Virus record (IMG/VR): IMGVR_UViG_2778261641_000004
Coordinates: 1 to 7,062 of that record
Reading direction: 5' to 3' (one strand)
Length of the DNA stretch: 7,062 nucleotides
Source of the DNA: a virus
Lineage: Duplodnaviria; Heunggongvirae; Uroviricota; Caudoviricetes
This document shows, one piece after another, positions 1 through 7,062 of the stretch. The translations under genes were made by a program, and so were the position numbers. The notes below the pieces were generated by a model. That model searched no databases and was not told the origin of the DNA. It was given only the letters and a program-made list of their open reading frames with translations. Numbering within the stretch: the first letter of the stretch is position 1; each line of letters starts with the position of its first letter.

Positions 1-873
1 CTGGAAATCCTCGGTACATTCATCGCGGGTGTCTGGGTATCCAAGGTTCTGGGGGCTTTCGGAAAAATATCAGGTTTACCGGTCCCACCCTGGCTTAAAT
101 TGTGGGCGCTTTACGCGGGCTATATTGTTAGCGACAGAGAAAATATTGCCGATAGCGCAAAATCTTCACTGAGGTATACGAAGCGAATTATCGGCGACAC
201 GCTGGCTGCTATTGGTATAAAAACAGATATCGGACGCAGGGATGTCAGTGAGGTCCGTGAATGGCCTGCGTGGATGGACTGGTTGCACGGGGGCCCCGGT
301 AAAGTTATCCGGCAGGGACAGAGTAACGGTGTAGTGCATGGCTCCAACGTCCAGCCCGACATCCCCGGCGGCGGTACTCTTGCTGATCGCAACAATAACC
401 CCGGGAACATTCGCCCGGTGAGCGGTAAAGGGTTCCGGTTTTTCGAATCAGCTCTTGAGGGCTGGGAGGCGATGAAAAACCAGCTCATGCGTTACTTTAC
501 CGGGAAAACAACCGGACGGGCATTACAGACTATTCAGGATATTGTCAGTACCTGGGCCCCGGCAGGTGATAACAACGATCCGAAAAAGTATGCACAGGAT
601 GTTGCGAAATGGATGGGAGTATCACCGAATGCAATATTGAATCTTACAGATCCCCAGACTATGGGTGCATTGATGCAGTCGATGGCGCGAAAAGAAGGTT
701 ATTCAAACTGGAACAGCCCGCTGGCGTATCAGGCCGCCGCTGGCAGCCTTAACCAGCAGACTGTTATAAATGTTCATGGAGTTAACAACCCTCAGGAGGC
801 GGCTAATCTGATCGCTGACAAGCAGGGGGCTGTAAATGCCAGGGCGGTACAGCAATTGAAAGGACCTGCGTAA
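1..873 (+). CDS. C-terminal part of a large tail protein, probably tape measure protein (5'-truncated by window edge)
   Basis: Frame 1 is open from base 1 (no stop before the TAA at 871-873), so the ORF starts upstream of the window. The first ~45 aa are hydrophobic (LEILGTFIAGVWVSKVLGAF...), followed by a Gly/Pro-rich region and a globular-looking C-terminus. It sits immediately upstream of the tail/baseplate genes and its stop overlaps the next start (TAATG). Confidence 0.5.
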   Translation: MEILGTFIAGVWVSKVLGAFGKISGLPVPPWLKLWALYAGYIVSDRENIADSAKSSLRYTKRIIGDTLAAIGIKTDIGRRDVSEVREWPAWMDWLHGGPGKVIRQGQSNGVVHGSNVQPDIPGGGTLADRNNNPGNIRPVSGKGFRFFESALEGWEAMKNQLMRYFTGKTTGRALQTIQDIVSTWAPAGDNNDPKKYAQDVAKWMGVSPNAILNLTDPQTMGALMQSMARKEGYSNWNSPLAYQAAAGSLNQQTVINVHGVNNPQEAANLIADKQGAVNARAVQQLKGPA

Positions 874-1523
874 TGGACTTTTTATCTGTTTTACTGCAGC
901 AGCGAACCCGCTCAATAGGAATCATTATTCCTGATGTGGTTATTACCGAAAAGCACACTGACGCCCTAGAAATTACGGAACATCCGGTTGAACAGCCCAC
1001 GAATGCTGGTGCCAGTGGTGAGGGCGCTGGTTATATATCAGAACACGCATTCAGGCGCCCTTCTGAGGTTGTGATGGAAACCGGTTTTTCCGGAGGCGGA
1101 TCGCTGCTTGATTTTGCCAGTAACCTGACGGCTACCAGTTTACTGGGTCTGAGCCCGAAAGAACTGTATCAGGAGTTGCTTAATCTGCAGCGGGATCGTA
1201 TTCCTTTCGATGTGACAACCGGCAAGCGTATTTACAACAATATGTTGATAAAAACGCTGGAGGTGACGACTGACAAGAGTAGTGAGAATGTGCTTCTGGC
1301 GACCCTTACCCTCAGGGAGGTGATTATTACCTCCACGCAGTCAATCAGGGTTGCCTCGAAAAACAATATGACCGAGGGAGTCGGAACGTCTGCTGTGCAG
1401 AATACAGGCACCAAAACAACGGTGCCGCCGAATAATTCCATTCTGAAATCGCTGCCACAGATAGCGCAAAAAGGTGTCACCACTGTCGATGGGTATCTGA
1501 GCAATTTATTTCTGGGAAGGTGA
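873..1523 (+). CDS. phage tail/baseplate assembly protein, function unassigned (216 aa)
   Basis: ATG at 873 overlaps the upstream stop (TAATG) with AAGGA 8 nt upstream. Position between tape-measure-like and hub-like genes suggests a tail assembly role; no family motif recognised with certainty. Confidence 0.45.
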   Translation: MDFLSVLLQQRTRSIGIIIPDVVITEKHTDALEITEHPVEQPTNAGASGEGAGYISEHAFRRPSEVVMETGFSGGGSLLDFASNLTATSLLGLSPKELYQELLNLQRDRIPFDVTTGKRIYNNMLIKTLEVTTDKSSENVLLATLTLREVIITSTQSIRVASKNNMTEGVGTSAVQNTGTKTTVPPNNSILKSLPQIAQKGVTTVDGYLSNLFLGR

Positions 1524-1526
1524 TTC

Positions 1527-1829
1527 ATGGAGGCCGTAGAAATCCCACTGGTTGCTGACAATCAGACTTTTGCCACCACAATTAACGGTACGGTTTATCA
1601 ACTGTCTGTCATCTGGCGCGGAGAGTACTGGGTTCTGGATCTTGCTGACAGCAATGGTTCCGCCATTATCTCAGGCATTCCGATGATTACGGGTGCTGAC
1701 CTGTTGGCGCAGTATCGATATATGAATCTCGGGTTTTCGCTGGTGGTACTCTGCGACGTGGCAGGGCAGGAAAACCCGACGCAATTCGATCTTGGAACGC
1801 TCTCACACCTCTATGTTTTCACGGAGTAA
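1527..1829 (+). CDS. small phage tail-associated protein, function unassigned (100 aa)
   Basis: ATG at 1527 lies 3 nt after the upstream stop with GGAAGG 6 nt upstream, and is tightly packed in the same operon. No recognisable LysM or other motif. Confidence 0.45.
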   Translation: MEAVEIPLVADNQTFATTINGTVYQLSVIWRGEYWVLDLADSNGSAIISGIPMITGADLLAQYRYMNLGFSLVVLCDVAGQENPTQFDLGTLSHLYVFTE

Positions 1830-1831
1830 CA

Positions 1832-2863
1832 ATGTCGAAAAACTGGATGCGTCACTTTGAATTATTGCTTGTTGATGATAAGGGCGACGGGATAAAAATT
1901 TCTGAGCTTAAAGTCACTTTCAATATTCAGAAAATGCCTGCGAGCATATTTAATGGATTCGTTGGAAATTTTAAGGTTTATAACCTGTCCCCTACCACTC
2001 AGAATCGGATTATGCAAAAGGAGTTTTCGCGTATACAGGTTATTGCCGGATACAAGGGGCAACCGGATGCAGCAGGTAATTATCCTGATGAAAACGTTGG
2101 TATGATATTCAATGGAGATATCCGTTTTACTGTCACTGGTAAAGATAATGCCACAGACAGTTGGATCATGTTGCAGTGTATTGACAGCTGGGAAGGTCAC
2201 CTGAACGCAAGTGTGAAAACCACAGTGGCAGCTGGCTGGAAGTACAGCGATCTTTTCAGTCTGGGTATGAAATCATTCGAACCATATGGCATCGAATCCG
2301 GTGCAGTTCCTGACATGCCGGAAACGGTATTCCCCAGAGGTCGCGTTGTTTATCAAAACACATCAAGGTTGATGAATCATATCGCAGGGCAGTGTAAAGC
2401 TAACTGGTGGTATGAAAATAATCTGGTAAATATTGTTCCTGAAGATAAATATATTGGTGTTGCTACGGTGTTGAATGCTAACACCGGGCTTATCGGTATG
2501 CCACAGCAGACGATGGGCGCTGGCGTAAATGTCAGATGTCTGATTAATCCAAATATTAAGCTCGGTGGGCTTATTCGTCTGGATCAGGCATCTGTATACC
2601 GTGCCTCTTTGAGTAATGACCAGGTAGCGAAATCGCCAGCACGACTGGATGAGTCTGAAAGCGACGGTAATCTCTACGTTAACGGTCTGCCAGGCATGTC
2701 ACAGCCTGCCAGCATTAATACTGACGGTGATTACATTGTGGGCAGCATTGATTATACTGGCGATACCCGAGGGCAGGCGTGGTATATGGACCTGCTTTGC
2801 CTGGCTAAAGGTGGCAAAGAATTGCTTAACTCGAAAGGGATTGATGCGGAGAAATACACATGA
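1832..2863 (+). CDS. baseplate hub-like protein (P2 gpD / Mu gp44 / T4 gp27-like), 343 aa
   Basis: GGAG 5 nt upstream of ATG 1832. The N-terminal pattern (AGYKG...IFNGDIRFTVTGKDNATDSWIMLQCID) and C-terminal pattern (GAGVNVRCLINPNIKLGGLIRL ... GDYIVGSIDYTGDTRGQAWYMDLLCL) resemble hub (late control D) proteins as I remember them. Not verified by search. Confidence 0.5.
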   Translation: MSKNWMRHFELLLVDDKGDGIKISELKVTFNIQKMPASIFNGFVGNFKVYNLSPTTQNRIMQKEFSRIQVIAGYKGQPDAAGNYPDENVGMIFNGDIRFTVTGKDNATDSWIMLQCIDSWEGHLNASVKTTVAAGWKYSDLFSLGMKSFEPYGIESGAVPDMPETVFPRGRVVYQNTSRLMNHIAGQCKANWWYENNLVNIVPEDKYIGVATVLNANTGLIGMPQQTMGAGVNVRCLINPNIKLGGLIRLDQASVYRASLSNDQVAKSPARLDESESDGNLYVNGLPGMSQPASINTDGDYIVGSIDYTGDTRGQAWYMDLLCLAKGGKELLNSKGIDAEKYT

Positions 2864-3195
2864 AAAGACCATTGTTGACAGTTTTACTTGTCTGTATCTC
2901 CTTCATTTCCTTTGCTGATACCGGTTGCGGACCATTTACGATCAACTGGAAAGCGCAAGACGGACTTGCAAGGATTAATGGACAGAAACCGGAGACACAG
3001 AAAATCATCTTTCTCAAACAGGAAGGTGATTATGACAATGTGAACATCCAATGGATGATTCCGGGTAATGGGCGTTGGTTAGGGATGGATTTTGTGGCCA
3101 GAAATGGCAAGCCGATCCTCAACGTTGAAGTTATCCGCAAAAATATGGACGAGCCTCGGGAGTTCTGGACGTATGATTGCCGGAAGGTTAAATGA
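2860..3195 (+). CDS. small secreted (periplasmic) protein with Sec signal peptide; candidate moron / superinfection-exclusion-type protein (111 aa)
   Basis: ATG overlaps the hub stop (ATGA). The N-terminus MKRPLLTVLLVCISFISFA is a classic signal peptide (basic n-region, hydrophobic core, SFA cleavage motif). There is no canonical lipobox. The mature part has two Cys (near residue 23 and near the C-terminus). The gene is AT-rich and is followed by an intrinsic terminator. Confidence 0.6.
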   Translation: MKRPLLTVLLVCISFISFADTGCGPFTINWKAQDGLARINGQKPETQKIIFLKQEGDYDNVNIQWMIPGNGRWLGMDFVARNGKPILNVEVIRKNMDEPREFWTYDCRKVK

Positions 3196-3210
3196 TCTTG
3201 CCCTCTCCGT

Positions 3211-3234
3211 AACCCACCGTCAGGTGGGTTTTTT
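3211..3234 (+). terminator. rho-independent terminator (T1) closing the TMP-hub-secreted protein transcription unit
   Basis: Perfect 8-bp stem AACCCACC / GGTGGGTT with a GTCA loop, followed by a T6 tract (3229-3234). The hairpin overlaps the last codons of the convergent mnt-like gene. Confidence 0.75.
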
Positions 3235-3540
3235 GTTTAGCAGTTCTCTCAACTTTTCGTTCTGCTCTCTGAACTTTTCCTGTATTTCTTTTTGCATGGC
3301 GATAACCTGGGCTTGAAGTTGAACTAGCGCATCAACATTTAGCGGAACCGAGACGCTGTTGATTTTGTCTGCTATTTCCCCAAGAGTATTTTCTGCATTC
3401 AAGGCATCTTCCAGTATCTGCACAATCTCTGAGTTCATTGATCTGCCGTTACGTTTAGCTCGTTCAGCTATAGCATCTCGCATTCCTGCAGGAAGCCTGA
3501 TATTGAACCTATCCATTTCATGACTAGGGAACTTGCTCAT
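3220..3540 (-). CDS. mnt: Mnt-like ribbon-helix-helix (Arc/MetJ superfamily) repressor with C-terminal coiled-coil (106 aa)
   Basis: DRFNIRLPAGMRDAIAERAKRNGRSMNSEIVQILEDAL aligns with remembered P22 Mnt (HFNFRMP...ANGRSMNSELLQIVQDAL). The C-terminal heptad-like region (LQAQVIAMQKEIQEKFREQNEKLRELL) is consistent with Mnt tetramerisation. GAGG lies 6 nt upstream of the ATG on the - strand. Confidence 0.8.
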   Translation of the reverse strand: MSKFPSHEMDRFNIRLPAGMRDAIAERAKRNGRSMNSEIVQILEDALNAENTLGEIADKINSVSVPLNVDALVQLQAQVIAMQKEIQEKFREQNEKLRELLNKKPT

Positions 3541-3574
3541 ATGACCTCAATGTAAAGATGTTTGCTAAACAATA

Positions 3575-3630
3575 GCACCAACTTGACATCAAAATAAATG
3601 GTGTTAAATTGGTTCTAGAACCAAGTTGGT
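3575..3630. promoter_or_regulatory. divergent promoter/operator region between mnt-like and arc-like genes (putative Pant plus operators)
   Basis: Perfect -35 TTGACA (3583-3588), a 16-nt spacer, then extended -10 TGtTAAATT (3602-3610) facing arc/ant. A 16-bp perfect palindrome TTGGTTCTAGAACCAA (3609-3624) overlaps the -10 and predicted +1. A 9-bp inverted repeat ACCAACTTG (3577-3585) / CAAGTTGGT (3622-3630) overlaps the -35. The - strand promoter for mnt could not be placed confidently. Confidence 0.55.
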
Positions 3631-3651
3631 ATCATTGTGGGAGGATTACTT

Positions 3652-3825
3652 ATGAAAGATGTGCTTTACACAGGTCGTAAAAGTCAAAGTTTCCAGCTTC
3701 GTTTGCCAGCGCGAATGAAGGAGGAGATTAGACGTGTTGCTGAAATGGATGGAATTTCTATCAACTCTGCGATTGTGCAGCGACTGGCTAAAAGCCTGAG
3801 AGAGGAAAGAGCTAATGCCCAATAA
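3652..3825 (+). CDS. arc: Arc-like ribbon-helix-helix repressor (57 aa)
   Basis: SFQLRLPARMKEEIRRVAEMDGISINSAIVQRL resembles remembered P22 Arc (QFNLRWPREVLDLVRKVAEENGRSVNSEIYQRV). GGGAGGA (3639-3645) lies 6 nt upstream of ATG 3652. The GTG start at 3637 in the ORF track lacks an RBS. Confidence 0.75.
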   Translation: MKDVLYTGRKSQSFQLRLPARMKEEIRRVAEMDGISINSAIVQRLAKSLREERANAQ

Positions 3826-3898
3826 AAATAGTGAAGCCCGGCAGTGCGCGAACACAAACCGGGCCTCTATGTCAGTAACCGTATGCAAGGAAACTAAC

Positions 3899-4525
3899 AT
3901 GAATATTGTAGCAAAATCAGATTACAACTTCCACGGAGTTGAGTTGGTGCCCACCCGTGATATGCATGGTGTTTGGTTTACGTCATCTAATATTGCATCT
4001 GCACTTAAATATGCAAATAGCCGTGCAGTAACAATGATTTATAACAAGTATAGCGATGAGTTTAGCGCCGGAATGACTCAGGTACTCGAAGTGAGTACCT
4101 CAGGAAATTATCGCAAAAAAGTGCGAGTTTTCTCACTACGCGGTGCCCACCTAATCGCGATGTTTGCTCGCACTCCGGTAGCCAAAGAGTTCCGCCGCTG
4201 GGTGCTGGATATTTTGGATCGGCAGGCAGAATGCTCACCGATTGCAAAACAGTTCACTGACGAAGAGCTGGTTAATCTCTGCTACTTACAATTGTGGATG
4301 GAGAAGAGTCAACAAATGTGCAAACACATCTACCCAGGAATGAAGCAAATTGGTTCTGAGCTTTCAGGAAGGATTTACGATATTGCATATGAGACTCGCT
4401 ACATGTCAGAAGAAACCAAGAAATCACTTCTTCGTGAAATGAAGAATCTTGATACCAACAATTTTGTCGTAAAGAACGCTCAGCCAATGCTGGCAAAACT
4501 TCGCGGCGAGGAATGGATTCATTGA
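3899..4525 (+). CDS. ant: phage antirepressor, BRO-N/Ant-type N-terminal domain (209 aa from ATG 3899; possible upstream start at 3815)
   Basis: YNFHGVELVPTRDMHGVWFTSSNIASALKY ... LRGAHLIAMFARTPVAKEFRRWVLDIL matches the BRO-N/antirepressor pattern (F.F..IR...G.PWF.A.DVA.ALGY ... A..F..WV). AAGGA (3887-3891) lies 7 nt upstream of ATG 3899. The gene is immediately downstream of arc, as in P22 immI. Confidence 0.7.
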   Translation: MNIVAKSDYNFHGVELVPTRDMHGVWFTSSNIASALKYANSRAVTMIYNKYSDEFSAGMTQVLEVSTSGNYRKKVRVFSLRGAHLIAMFARTPVAKEFRRWVLDILDRQAECSPIAKQFTDEELVNLCYLQLWMEKSQQMCKHIYPGMKQIGSELSGRIYDIAYETRYMSEETKKSLLREMKNLDTNNFVVKNAQPMLAKLRGEEWIH

Positions 4526-4540
4526 TTGGTGCACAGGACG

Positions 4541-4574
4541 GCGCAAAAGAAAACCGCCAGTGTGCTGCTGGCGG
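4541..4574 (-). terminator. reverse-strand rho-independent terminator in the ant - antirepressor-2 intergenic region
   Basis: Perfect 7-bp GC-rich stem CCGCCAG / CTGGCGG (4554-4560 / 4568-4574) with a 7-nt loop. On the - strand it is followed directly by TTTTCTTTT (complement of + 4545-4553). On the + strand it is followed by CCTATGTCAC, with no U-tract, so it is oriented for leftward transcripts only. Confidence 0.6.
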
Positions 4575-4618
4575 CCTATGTCACACCCTTACTACCACAT
4601 AAGGAATGCCTAATGACT
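4545..4618 (-). ncRNA. candidate sar-like antisense RNA overlapping the RBS and start codon of the second antirepressor-like gene (hypothetical)
   Basis: Candidate - strand promoter inside the 5' end of the 4613 gene: -35 GTGACA (+ 4648-4653), 17-nt spacer, -10 TACATT (+ 4625-4630), predicted start near 4617-4619. The transcript would run leftward across ATG 4613 and SD 4601-4605 and end at the - strand terminator, giving about 70-75 nt. This is inference only. Confidence 0.3.
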
Positions 4619-5338
4619 TTTAAGAATGTAGCAAACATCGGATCCGTTGTCACGGATAAAACCATTGACAGCCAAAGTCTTCTGATGATGGTTAATGAAG
4701 CTCGCAAGTTATGTGGAGAGCCATCAGTACGTAACAACAAATTCATCGAGAAAATTGAGGATGAATTGGAAGGCGAGACCTACACAAAAAGTGTAGGTCG
4801 GAAAAACGGGGCTGACATTGATGTTATCTCCATGACTATCAAGCAGGCGCTTCGTGTTGCTGCTCGCGAATCTAAAGCAGTTCGCCGCTCACTTGTAGAC
4901 CAACTTGAAAGTATGCAAGAAGCGCACATTAAAAGCGGTAAATCGTCGAGTGGACTTGTTGAGTATCGCCAGGCGCGAACATTGAAAATGACGGTTGAAG
5001 CTGTTACCAATCTGTTCGATTTGATGCCAAATCTTGCGCCGGAAGCAAAGCAGACCGCGGCCGCAAGCATAATCAACCCGATCGTTGGTTTTAATGCAAT
5101 ACCCCTTCCGGCAATAGAAGAGCATTACTACTCAGCAGGGGAGGTTGCAGAGCAGCTTGGAGTAACGGCCAACAAGATTGGTCGCATTGCTAACGCAAAC
5201 AACCTCAAAACTGAGCAGTACGGGAAGTTCTTCCTGGATAAATCGGCGCATTCCAGCAAACAGGTGGAAGCATTCCGCTACAATGCGGAAGGTGTTAAAG
5301 CACTACAACACCTGGTTCATGGGAGTAATGTTGCATAA
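4613..5338 (+). CDS. second antirepressor-like / phage regulatory protein (Rha-like N-terminus, KilAC/ANT-like HTH C-terminus), 241 aa
   Basis: AAGGA (4601-4605) lies 7 nt upstream of ATG 4613. The N-terminus (TIDSQSLLMMVNEARKLCGEPSVRNNKFIEKIEDEL) resembles Rha-family regulators. The C-terminus (YYSAGEVAEQLGVTANKIGRIANANNLKTEQYGKFF) resembles the KilAC/ANT antirepressor C-terminal domain. The TTG start at 4526 in the ORF track has no RBS and would read through the hairpin. Confidence 0.5.
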   Translation: MTFKNVANIGSVVTDKTIDSQSLLMMVNEARKLCGEPSVRNNKFIEKIEDELEGETYTKSVGRKNGADIDVISMTIKQALRVAARESKAVRRSLVDQLESMQEAHIKSGKSSSGLVEYRQARTLKMTVEAVTNLFDLMPNLAPEAKQTAAASIINPIVGFNAIPLPAIEEHYYSAGEVAEQLGVTANKIGRIANANNLKTEQYGKFFLDKSAHSSKQVEAFRYNAEGVKALQHLVHGSNVA

Positions 5339-5559
5339 TGGCAAAGAAAAAATATGGCATTATGCCGCCAAGAATCAAAGGAAGAGCCATGGTAAAAGGC
5401 GATGCTGGGAGATATCACATTCTTGGTGTTTTGTGGCATGAGAGAGCTTTAATTTTAAGCAGACCTCATGGGTACATTGAAAAGGTATCTATAGATAGAA
5501 TTGAGATTCTTCCCCTTACTCCTGAAGAAGAAGAAACGTACGGACTTTTTGATAACTAG
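5338..5559 (+). CDS. small hypothetical protein (73 aa), translationally coupled to the antirepressor-like gene
   Basis: ATG 5338 overlaps the upstream TAA (TAATG). It has a basic N-terminus (MAKKKYGIMPPRIKGR) and an acidic C-terminus (TPEEEETYGLFDN), and is followed by terminator T2. No family recognised. Confidence 0.45.
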   Translation: MAKKKYGIMPPRIKGRAMVKGDAGRYHILGVLWHERALILSRPHGYIEKVSIDRIEILPLTPEEEETYGLFDN

Positions 5560-5570
5560 CCAATTCACTA

Positions 5571-5594
5571 AACCCAGCTTCGGCTTGGTTTTTT
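5571..5594 (+). terminator. rho-independent terminator (T2) at the 3' boundary of the accessory module
   Basis: Stem AACCCAGC / GCTTGGTT (one mismatch or bulge) with a TTCG tetraloop, followed by a T6 tract. It matches T1 at 19 of 24 positions. Confidence 0.7.
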
Positions 5595-5613
5595 ACTTTC
5601 TGGAGACATATGA

Positions 5614-6369
5614 ATGCCCGTTTCTTTAAGCGATCAACTTGGTAGCAAAGAACAGGCCGATGTAAGACTTGCTGGCTCTGTCATGTCGGCGCTGCGTGTT
5701 TCTATGCCCGGCATCGTCCAGTCATTTGATCCGGACACGGTAACAGTGGTTGTTCAACCTGCGATTAAAGGCTATGAGCCGGACTCAAATGGAATCAACC
5801 AGTCGACGACATTACCCCTGCTGGTGGATGTGCCGGTGGTATTCCCGCGCGGCGGCGGCTGCACGTTAACTTTCCCGGTGAAAGCCGGCGATGAATGTCT
5901 GGTGATTTTTGCCGATCGCTGCATCGATTTCTGGTGGCAGAACGGCGGGGTACAGGAGCCTGTCGATGACAGAATGCATGATTTATCGGATGCGTTCTGT
6001 ATCGTCGGTCTGCAGTCTCAGGCGCAGAAAATCAGCGGAATCAGCACCAGCGCCGCGCAACTGCGTACTGATGATGGCGCTGCGTTTGTGGAAGTGGCCG
6101 CAGGCCATAACATCACGGTTAAAACCCCCGGCGCGCTGACGGCGACAGCAGAAGGTGGGACAACAATCACATCCCCGACTATCACGCTGAACGGCAACGT
6201 AACGATTAATGGCAATCTGTCTCAGGGAATGGGCGAAAGTGGCGGTACTGCGACGATGCTTGGCCCTGTCACGGTGACTAACGATGTAAAAGCTGGTGGT
6301 AAGAGCCTGATGACGCACACGCACGGCGGAGTACAGACCGGCGGCGGTAACACAGGAGCGCCTAACTGA
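5614..6369 (+). CDS. baseplate central spike protein (P2 gpV / phi92 gp138-like, OB-fold N-domain plus Gly-rich beta-helix with His apex), 251 aa
   Basis: GGAG 8 nt upstream of ATG 5614. The N-terminal pattern (LLVDVPVVFPRGGGCTLTFPVKAGDECLVIFADRCIDFWW) is OB-fold gpV/gp138-like. The C-terminus has Gly/Thr-rich repeats ending in KSLMTHTHGGVQTGGGNTGAPN, analogous to the P2 gpV apex (KVLHTHKHPGD...), where the HxH motif binds iron. Confidence 0.8.
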   Translation: MPVSLSDQLGSKEQADVRLAGSVMSALRVSMPGIVQSFDPDTVTVVVQPAIKGYEPDSNGINQSTTLPLLVDVPVVFPRGGGCTLTFPVKAGDECLVIFADRCIDFWWQNGGVQEPVDDRMHDLSDAFCIVGLQSQAQKISGISTSAAQLRTDDGAAFVEVAAGHNITVKTPGALTATAEGGTTITSPTITLNGNVTINGNLSQGMGESGGTATMLGPVTVTNDVKAGGKSLMTHTHGGVQTGGGNTGAPN

Positions 6370-6722
6370 TGCGATACAGACGTGAAGACGCCGATGGCGA
6401 TTATACCTTTGGCAGCGGTGATGACACCTGGCTGATTAACTCACCGGAGGCCGTGGCGCAGGCGGTAAAAACGCGATTCAAATTGTGGTATGGGCAATGG
6501 TTTCTCGATACCACCGAAGGGACTCCGTGGATCCAGTCCGTACTCGGTAAGCAGAAGCCGGAAACCTACAACCTGGCGATCCGTAAGCGCATCCTCGAAA
6601 CGCGGGGCGTTAAATCAATCCTCTCTTTCAATACGACGGTGGATACCACGACCCGACGTGTCATGTTTTCCGCTGAAATCGACACTCTTTATGGAATAAC
6701 GACTGTTACATCGGAGGCGTAA
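6369..6722 (+). CDS. small baseplate wedge protein (gpW/gp25-like or DUF-type baseplate protein), 117 aa
   Basis: ATG overlaps the spike stop (TGATG). Its size and its position between the spike and the baseplate-J gene match gpW/gp46-type proteins. The sequence-level match is not certain. Confidence 0.5.
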   Translation: MRYRREDADGDYTFGSGDDTWLINSPEAVAQAVKTRFKLWYGQWFLDTTEGTPWIQSVLGKQKPETYNLAIRKRILETRGVKSILSFNTTVDTTTRRVMFSAEIDTLYGITTVTSEA

Positions 6723-7062
6723 TGGCTCTGAACCTTGATTCTCTCGGTTTATCTGCAAAGGTAACCGCAGAGGGGATCAGTGCGCCTGATTATCAGACGA
6801 TACTCAGCACCCTGATTAGCTATTTTCAGCAGATTTATGGCAGTGATGCCTACCTCGAACCAGACAGCAAAGACGGCCAGATGGTGGCTCTGATGGCGCT
6901 GGCGATTCATGATGCCAATAATACTGCGATAACTGTCTACAACTGTTTTTCACCGGCAACCGGCTATGGGGCTGCACTGACCAGTAACGTGAAAATAAAT
7001 GGTATTTCACGTAAAGGCGCGACGAACTCTACGGTTGATTTGCTTCTTACAGGAACTGCCGG
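6722..7062 (+). CDS. baseplate J-like protein (P2 gpJ / Mu gp47 family), N-terminal 113 aa, 3'-truncated by window edge
   Basis: ATG overlaps the upstream TAA (TAATG) and the frame is open to the window end. The sequence (DYQTILSTLISYFQQIYG...ATGYGAALTSNVKINGISRKGATNSTVDLLLTG) fits the Baseplate_J N-terminal pattern. It is absent from the ORF track only because it has no stop in the window. Confidence 0.75.
   Translation, partial: MALNLDSLGLSAKVTAEGISAPDYQTILSTLISYFQQIYGSDAYLEPDSKDGQMVALMALAIHDANNTAITVYNCFSPATGYGAALTSNVKINGISRKGATNSTVDLLLTGTA

Follow-up and report, generated by a model that had tools for sequence, protein, structure and literature searches.

Phage-encoded proteins that keep other phages from entering the cell have been described in several forms. 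T4 Spackle is soluble in the periplasm and contains one disulfide; it binds the peptidoglycan hydrolase that an incoming contractile-tailed phage carries on its tail (the gp5 lysozyme) and inhibits it. T5 Llp is exported, is linked to tail or receptor-binding genes and blocks entry at or after adsorption; phi80/T1 Cor and P1 Sim are exported exclusion proteins linked to such genes that also block entry. Both Llp and Cor plug FhuA, as lipoproteins of the outer membrane. SieA of phage P22, encoded beside an mnt/arc/ant block of the immunity-I type, is an inner-membrane protein. Late-operon morons are extra genes among tail genes, such as lambda lom, lambda bor and HK97 gene 15, and HK97 gp15 excludes phages at the DNA-entry step. 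Here, we analyzed a stretch of 7,062 nt from a Caudoviricetes virus (IMG/VR record IMGVR_UViG_2778261641_000004, positions 1-7,062), referred to as the window. The gene that follows the baseplate hub gene in this window, named orfX below, codes for a predicted exported protein of 111 amino acids (aa). We propose that an SEN34-like (lambdoid, contractile-tailed) enterobacterial prophage carries orfX as a moron-type accessory gene, in the variable slot that separates its hub and spike genes; to the proposal as a whole, including the guard function against incoming phages described below, we assign a probability of roughly 0.45. The features of orfX and of its immediate surroundings are as follows.

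2860..3195, + strand: orfX, precursor of the predicted exported protein, 111 aa, PHROG 3443
2848..2851, + strand: Shine-Dalgarno sequence GGAG, 8 nt upstream of the ATG, read from the sequence
2860..2916, + strand: predicted signal peptide, residues 1-19, with predicted cleavage after SFA
2917..3192, + strand: mature domain, 92 aa, 10.7 kDa, isoelectric point 8.7, grand average of hydropathy (GRAVY) -0.73, an eight-stranded up-and-down beta-barrel in the AlphaFold model
2730..2758, + strand: sigma-70-like promoter element ATTACA-17-TATACT, within codons 300-309 of the hub gene and some 100 nt before orfX
3211..3235, + strand: intrinsic-terminator-like element, hairpin AACCCACC-GTCA-GGTGGGTT (3211-3230) followed by the T-run TTTTTG

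OrfX is a real gene and more than a chance open reading frame (ORF). This follows from purifying selection (ratio of nonsynonymous to synonymous substitution rates, dN/dS, of 0.06-0.14 against diverged alleles), from the 633 homologues recovered by profile search (84 by single-sequence search) and from two AlphaFold models, one of the window protein and one of a 36%-identical homologue, that reached a mean predicted local distance difference test (pLDDT) score of 86.5 and 83.8, respectively. The start codon shares the tetranucleotide ATGA with the TGA stop of the hub gene (1832..2863), so that the first-pass annotation had placed the ORF and its overlap correctly. The same annotation had described the gene as AT-rich, which does not hold: the GC content is 44.3% for orfX, 44.6% for the hub gene and 47.8% for the window, and there is no AT-rich island. 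One trait often expected of morons, a base composition unlike that of the neighbors, is hence absent here. Across the whole locus sample, orfX identity tracks hub identity (Spearman 0.74-0.81). Because orfX has diverged together with the hub gene and shares its base composition, it is an old resident of the slot that is exchanged now and then, and no recent AT-rich import.

The first-pass annotation had called the product a secreted protein with a Sec signal peptide. We assessed this by comparison within the family and by a crude heuristic rule. A type I signal peptide should have a positively charged n-region, a hydrophobic h-region that spans 10-15 residues, and small residues at both -3 and -1. 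The N-terminus, MKRPLLTVLLVCISFISFA followed by DTGCG, contains two basic residues, a hydrophobic core of 13 residues and S-F-A at -3 to -1. It can be divided into MKR as n-region, PLLTVLLVCISFI as h-region and SFA ahead of the Asp as c-region, the pattern of a type I signal peptide. The same layout is present in 44/44 aligned homologues, with an AXA-like motif 2-8 residues ahead of an invariant Cys-Gly. At the same time, no other part of the protein varies as much as the signal segment (mean column entropy of 2.7 bits vs. 0.8-1.9 elsewhere). A variable sequence with a constant layout is how signal peptides behave. Indeed, the heuristic rule was positive for 45/47 unique family members (96%) and for 69/732 control tail ORFs (9%). 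In the AlphaFold model this segment, with a helix at residues 5-12, is of low pLDDT and stands apart from the barrel. The source databases name family members "hypothetical", "Secreted protein" or "Putative exported protein". Taken at the level of prediction, the earlier call of a secreted 111-aa protein stands.

We also searched for a lipobox, defined as [LVI][ASTVI][GAS]C closing the signal peptide. None precedes Cys23 (D-T-G-C), and none is found at the conserved cysteine in any of the aligned homologues, where T-S, T-Q or I-Q stand before the Cys; the protein is thus no lipoprotein by sequence. A true lipobox occurs in rare fusions (P0131, P0147, F30), where it sits on an added N-terminal domain. 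In a few lipoproteins of 265-292 aa the orfX domain forms the C-terminal domain, and these fusions therefore again place it outside the cytoplasm. As a side observation, some relatives carry lipoproteins of 230-290 aa in the hub-spike slot (P0131, P0147; loci L066, L079, L103, L114). In P0131 and P0147 the orfX domain is C-terminal, behind an N-terminal domain that has no assignment, and the lipoprotein of the L079 type has no detectable orfX domain.

The mature part of the protein was predicted to fold with confidence. The barrel starts at residue 20, has about eight strands with pLDDT >90, and its topology is identical in the two models. Cys23 (2926-2928) lies on the first strand and Cys107 (3178-3180) on the last; in the homologue alignments C23 never varies, and C107 is likewise invariant or almost so. 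A third cysteine, C12, is located inside the signal peptide, and the mature protein thus has the two cysteines that had been pointed out before, conserved across the family. Since C23 and C107 sit on the two strands that close the barrel, a disulfide stapling the first to the last strand is likely in the model. The hairpin after the Cys-Gly is the most variable mature segment family-wide. A structure-based search, which had been suggested as a check, gave a mixed outcome: the fold prediction is confident, but Foldseek against the PDB and the BFVD viral models returned nothing for orfX at E<=0.001. Matches of the sequence profile to nanobodies in the PDB (E ~0.5) were set aside as chance.

If orfX coded for a part of the virion, it should be invariably present and co-adapted with the tail. 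We therefore compared loci that share 96-100% identity with the window in the C-terminus of the tape-measure protein (TMP) and in the Dit-like, plug and hub proteins. Mature orfX is 99-100% identical in L007 and L009-L013 and 71% identical in L014, L015, L017, L019 and L022, and in L020, L021 and L030 it is replaced by the unrelated F05 together with F04. The spike varies independently of the orfX state in these near-identical tails. Because such tails carry other orfX alleles or unrelated exported proteins, orfX is dispensable for the tail and is no virion part. The same data speak against orfX being matched to the hydrolase or spike of its own tail, since orfX can be 100% identical, 71% identical or missing where the TMP C-terminus is unchanged (100% identical).

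A second line of evidence comes from the baseplate of the minimal myophage Pam3. The baseplate genes in the window are listed below.

100..873: C-terminus of the tape-measure protein, upstream tail gene
873..1523: Dit-like tube initiator, tail gene
1527..1829: Pam3_gp18 plug, tail gene
1832..2863, + strand: baseplate hub, 343 aa, Pfam PF22759 E217_GP41 and PHROG 196 baseplate hub
5614..6369, + strand: baseplate spike, Pfam PF18352 plus Apex motif, right border of the hub-spike slot
6369..6722: sheath initiator, directly after the spike, followed by a J-like wedge gene

The cryo-electron microscopy structure of the Pam3 baseplate contains gp17 (tube initiator), gp18 (plug), gp19 (hub), gp20 (spike), gp21 (sheath initiator) and gp22/gp23 (wedge) and is complete with these six components (PMC9942802). 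The order Dit-like, plug, hub in the window is that of gp17-gp19. Since the hub gp19 and the spike gp20 are consecutively numbered in Pam3, everything between hub and spike in the window, orfX included, is an insertion relative to the Pam3 order, and orfX has the moron trait of lying between genes that are adjacent in relatives. The spacing between hub and spike is 2.75 kb here. This also corrects the earlier placement of orfX at the end of the tail-gene run, because the baseplate genes resume at 5614 with spike, sheath initiator and J-like wedge. The doubt expressed earlier about a virion component was well founded, and so was the term moron, which is borne out by the allele swaps, the insertion relative to Pam3 and the terminators where orfX is the sole insert (see below). 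We conclude that the orfX product is very probably an exported, non-virion, accessory protein.

The C-terminal part of the TMP (about 382-754; residues 95-218 of the ORF 100..873) resembles an endolysin or a tail-injection transglycosylase. It matched PHROG 873 (E 7.5e-48), PHROG 7182 and the PDB entry 7q47 "Endolysin" (E 1.8e-5), and Pfam did not recognize it.

Expression signals were examined next to the gene. The consensus scan found one sigma-70-like site upstream of orfX, with 9/12 consensus matches. It lies within the hub coding sequence, and we compared codon use at 230 degenerate positions of 86 unique hub sequences. Two of the 230 positions are codon-invariant, D300 (GAT, 2729-2731) and T309 (ACT, 2756-2758), of which the former supplies the start of the -35 hexamer and the latter the end of the -10 hexamer. 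Codon constancy of at least 90% was found at 13 hub positions, four of them in codons 300-309, and Thr codons nearby vary freely in the same sequences. The evidence for a promoter is suggestive, and the embedded element is treated as a candidate promoter below.

Downstream, the claim of an own terminator stands in part. The hairpin with its T-run is present, but its right arm runs into the 3' end of the convergently oriented mnt-like gene (stop at 3220-3222) and covers the last codons of that gene, and a terminator follows orfX in 16/93 distinct contexts of the family. Terminators follow orfX at loci where it is the sole insert (L027, L070, L072 and L100; strong) and where the next gene is convergent. 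A candidate promoter, the gene and a terminator between genes that are adjacent elsewhere correspond to the classical moron layout. The Rfam and tRNA scans of the region yielded no RNA gene; a weak match to sroH is merely the terminator hairpin.

How orfX relates to its slot was studied in 80 IMG/VR loci that were picked via the hub protein and not via orfX. In 80/80 of them, the gene immediately behind the hub codes for a signal-peptide protein. This position 1 is taken by the orfX family in 71 loci, by F05, a Thr/Gly/Cys-rich peptide of 80-84 aa, in seven and by F30, a lipoprotein of about 240 aa, in two; both F05 and F30 are unrelated to orfX. No empty hub-spike junction was found among the 80 loci, and the smallest slot measures 292 nt. 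Phages yong1 and EKP1 have other exported ORFs in place of orfX. A further exported protein of 136 aa in the same slot, F23, has a CG...C pattern, and hhalign gave a probability of 10% for its relation to orfX.

The interval between hub and spike (2864-5613 in the window; loci L001-L088) is a cargo hotspot with two tiers, an exported position 1 and interchangeable cargo beyond. The downstream cargo includes Phd/Doc, a HEPN protein with a 256-aa partner, a 188-aa HExxH protein, DUF4282 and small membrane proteins; further alternatives are an immI-like mnt/arc/antirepressor block or nothing at all. The window carries such an immI-like block, as follows.

3220..5559: immI-like cargo block, by Pfam and PHROG matches; other cargo in relatives
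3220-3540, - strand: Mnt/Arc-family gene, convergent with orfX, stop codon 3220-3222
3637-3825: Arc-family gene within the block
3815-4525: Bro-N/P22_AR_C antirepressor within the block
4526-5338: second antirepressor, PHROG 1726
5338-5559: 73-aa ORF, PHROG 4977

A strong promoter-like site, TTGACA-16-TAAATT with TG, is located between mnt and arc (3583-3610).

The first-pass annotation had read the position next to mnt by analogy to sieA of P22. The adjacency is true in this window but incidental, because the orfX-mnt junction is covered in 1/344 E. coli genomes that match 2600-3700 and because the same protein precedes other cargos elsewhere. Many of these E. coli genomes are about 99% identical up to the orfX stop codon and divergent beyond it. 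The ten displayed places of the identical 111-aa protein show several cargos, including DUF4282 or other small ORFs downstream, and Phd/Doc follows a 99%-identical orfX allele. Window positions 3819-5563 share 96.5% identity with a segment of another phage, JEP4. Many other cargos can take the place of the mnt/arc/antirepressor block, and the positional analogy to P22 has to be given up.

The family itself is widespread and without assigned function. PHROG 3443 matches residues 6-111 of orfX (E 3.5e-42) and has no known function. The Prokaryotic Genome Annotation Pipeline (PGAP) names a 71%-identical allele in the same position (WP_000755137.1) "STY1065/STY2022 family phage-derived protein". 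None of the hidden Markov models (HMMs) of NCBIfam release 20 matched orfX, and this name probably rests on a rule other than an NCBIfam HMM. Profiles from Pfam, NCBIfam and PADLOC did not match orfX either (PADLOC: no family at E<=0.1). Our literature search on STY1065/STY2022, on SEN34 virion proteomics and on the hub-spike hotspot found nothing relevant. The family comprises 68 clusters at 50% identity among 1.8 billion representatives, homologues were present in 65/5426 complete E. coli genomes, and the identical 111-aa protein occurred in 1221 blocks of the assembly collection. Homologues with 28-73% identity lie directly after the hub gene in SEN34, Mulock, several Klebsiella prophage-derived phages and E. 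coli phages. A hub homologue was found upstream in 32/34 genome loci, within about 20 nt in 30 of them. The 34 genome loci carry Enterobacterales titles, bar one labelled Chryseobacterium.

Some records around the family need comment. Family matches within proteins of 900-4400 aa were set aside as repeat-driven; of five examined, three turned out to be Listeria-Bacteroides (Flg_new) repeat proteins, and the remaining two were rich in repeats as well. Clustering at 90% identity put the 111-aa protein together with hub-size proteins of 343-346 aa, under a representative of 344 aa. This looks like a clustering artefact, possibly from gene calls fused across the ATGA overlap. The locus of "Elizabethkingia phage EKP1" (L006, OM284015.1) and that of "Chryseobacterium sp. 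18061" (L117, CACSKA010000001.1) carry a tail module of the enterobacterial type, and the hub and spike proteins of EKP1 are 74% and 77% identical to those of the window, respectively. Their host or organism labels look doubtful. In Pantoea sp. C3 (L110, NZ_CP173698.1, 3489-3839) we found a lone family copy with no hub or spike gene within 3.5 kb, followed by a terminator of the type seen in the prophage loci with a sole insert; this copy could be what is left of a prophage, or it could have been domesticated. Serratia aquatilis (L107, NZ_CP173186.1, 2-4233) contains at least six tandem paralogues of the orfX family, one of them frameshifted. An IS256-like transposase just upstream of the spike gene interrupts this array. 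The paralogues are near-identical in the C-terminal half and differ mainly in the first hairpin after the Cys-Gly.

What might an accessory protein of this kind do? We suggest that orfX would be transcribed with the late tail operon and, in the lysogen, also from the sigma-70 promoter within the hub gene. The transcript in the lysogen would be stopped by the terminator, and late antitermination would read through it. The regulatory region of SEN34, the type phage, is lambda-like, and late transcription is antiterminated in lambda. The gene is permanently linked to the tail apparatus, which has to cross the periplasm; the mature protein would be free in that compartment and act by binding. As a guard of the lysogen, it would capture or inhibit the spike tip, the TMP or the peptidoglycan-hydrolase domain of the TMP of an incoming phage, and so bring about superinfection exclusion in the manner of T4 Spackle, with the variable first hairpin after Cys23 setting the specificity. 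The hydrolase-like domain of the TMP is a plausible target. This particular mechanism, which draws on analogy, is tentative, and we would give it somewhat less than an even chance. We favor exclusion because linkage to tail genes is typical of exclusion genes (T5 llp, HK97 gene 15), because Spackle provides a soluble periplasmic precedent and the present tail has an endolysin-like TMP domain, and because the alleles reassort as under frequency-dependent selection and the Serratia paralogues differ in the hairpin.

Several observations weigh against this proposal. The promoter scan was not enriched over shuffled sequences (six sites vs. 5.4 expected), and a permutation test with a sliding window of nine codons was not significant (p=0.38), though its maximum coincides with the promoter-like element. 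The promoter argument rests on the codon-level invariance for this reason. The ATGA coupling makes late expression certain, whereas expression in the lysogen is putative. Signal-peptide cleavage and the disulfide are predictions as well. Moreover, among near-identical backgrounds the orfX allele shows no co-variation with either the TMP C-terminus or the spike; for the same reason, an inhibitor directed at the phage's own tail is not indicated. Finally, our search found no functional data or literature for any family member.

The protein could instead serve the host against attack that does not come from phages. As a lysogenic-conversion immunity factor, the barrel would neutralize lysozymes, peptidoglycan-hydrolase effectors of type VI secretion or bacteriocins to the benefit of the host. 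We consider this rather unlikely: the structural scores are fold-level only and below those for avidins, none of the Pfam, NCBIfam and PADLOC profiles matched, and the hub gene upstream at nearly all genome loci (32/34) speaks for a phage-centered role. A calycin- or avidin-like barrel that binds a small ligand and sequesters a periplasmic metabolite, lipid or cofactor is quite improbable. More can be said for a function late in the lytic cycle, in the periplasm of the producing cell, with no role in the lysogen, such as protection from lysis-from-without or secondary adsorption, lysis timing, or prevention of progeny loss on debris. Translational coupling and the Shine-Dalgarno sequence within the hub gene guarantee late co-expression, and an exported protein at position 1 of every hub-selected locus suggests a need tied to the phage's own cycle. 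On the contrary, the constrained promoter-like element and the terminators fit an expression independent of the late operon, and no library searched revealed a similarity to holins, antiholins or spanins, so that we regard this function as unlikely, too.

Two further readings are contradicted by the data. OrfX sits among the baseplate genes, its translation is coupled to that of the hub gene and the two genes have co-diverged, as one would expect of a virion or tail-assembly component in which the hydrophobic N-terminus were a structural or membrane-inserting helix. This is nevertheless very improbable, given the replaced or 71%-identical alleles in 96-100% identical tails and a solved Pam3 baseplate that needs no such protein and has no counterpart of it. 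In addition, the AXA-type c-region is kept while the h-region drifts, and lipoprotein fusions exist. Least probable of all is an eight-stranded outer-membrane barrel like Lom, Ail or OmpX, which the tail-region moron lom of lambda might bring to mind. Proteins of this kind are about 150 aa long and should show a hydrophobic barrel exterior, an aromatic residue at the C-terminus and a matching profile. Mature orfX, in contrast, has 92 aa with strands of 4-10 residues, is hydrophilic (26 charged residues, in line with its GRAVY), ends in ...DCRKVK and not in an aromatic residue, contains a conserved cysteine pair and matched no outer-membrane-protein family of Pfam.

We come back to the proposed exclusion role and its possible reach. 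The orfX family might represent an unrecognised class of soluble periplasmic exclusion proteins, with a disulfide-stapled calycin-like barrel, a promoter embedded in the hub gene for expression in lysogens, and a hypervariable hairpin that gives specificity in capturing the spike, TMP or hydrolase of incoming contractile-tailed phages. We hold this wider proposal to be doubtful. If true, position 1 between hub and spike would be a dedicated, always-occupied exclusion cassette that is filled by at least four unrelated exported families. Periplasm-acting prophage genes decide which phages, and possibly which lytic enzymes, reach the lysogen, and this bears on the use of phages as therapy against E. 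coli, Klebsiella and Salmonella, in which prophages of this type are common. The family is small, predicted to be soluble and confidently folded, and is hence an experimentally easy target. The exported protein first after the hub, probably driven by a promoter embedded in the hub codons, is also a regularity that may serve more generally than orfX alone: it gives a concrete and testable rule by which accessory genes acting on the envelope can be found in tail operons.

How does orfX compare to the systems described so far? T4 Spackle is the closest precedent in kind. Both are small exported precursors (97 aa processed to 75 aa for Spackle, 111 aa to a predicted 92 aa for orfX), and orfX would share the soluble periplasmic state and the single disulfide. 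However, Spackle is an alpha-helical bundle and the orfX models are all-beta barrels, so that the Spackle fold is not found here. Spackle is also an early gene of a virulent phage, whereas orfX belongs to the late tail operon of a temperate phage, has no known partner and does not track the TMP domain with its allele. With T5 Llp it has in common that it is phage-encoded, predicted to be exported and linked to tail genes, but unlike Llp and Cor it has no lipobox. A search of the phage collection found no homology of orfX to Llp, Cor or Sim.

The likeness to P22 SieA lies in a gene beside an immunity-I-type block in a temperate enterobacterial phage. In orfX, however, the adjacency to mnt is particular to this mosaic, the product is a predicted soluble barrel, and 0/20 phage records matching orfX bear a P22-like label. 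The lysozyme inhibitors PliC/MliC, PliG, PliI and Ivy differ from orfX in that no sequence-family match was found and the structural similarity is weaker than that to avidins; for PliC/MliC, neither a profile match nor a close structural similarity was seen. Like the late-operon morons lom, bor and gene 15, orfX is an extra gene among tail genes and has a product directed to the envelope; a promoter-like element precedes it and, in the minimal arrangement, a terminator follows. Lom forms a barrel in the outer membrane, Bor is a lipoprotein and gp15 belongs to the inner membrane. The orfX product, in contrast, is predicted to be soluble, and the gene has no intergenic space, a candidate promoter inside the hub coding sequence and a base composition like that of the hub gene. 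Judged by profile or fold, orfX lies outside the characterized Spackle, Llp/Cor, SieA, PliC/MliC and Lom/Ail families. It is a gene of a well-known kind, a late-operon moron with an envelope-directed product, from an uncharacterized family.

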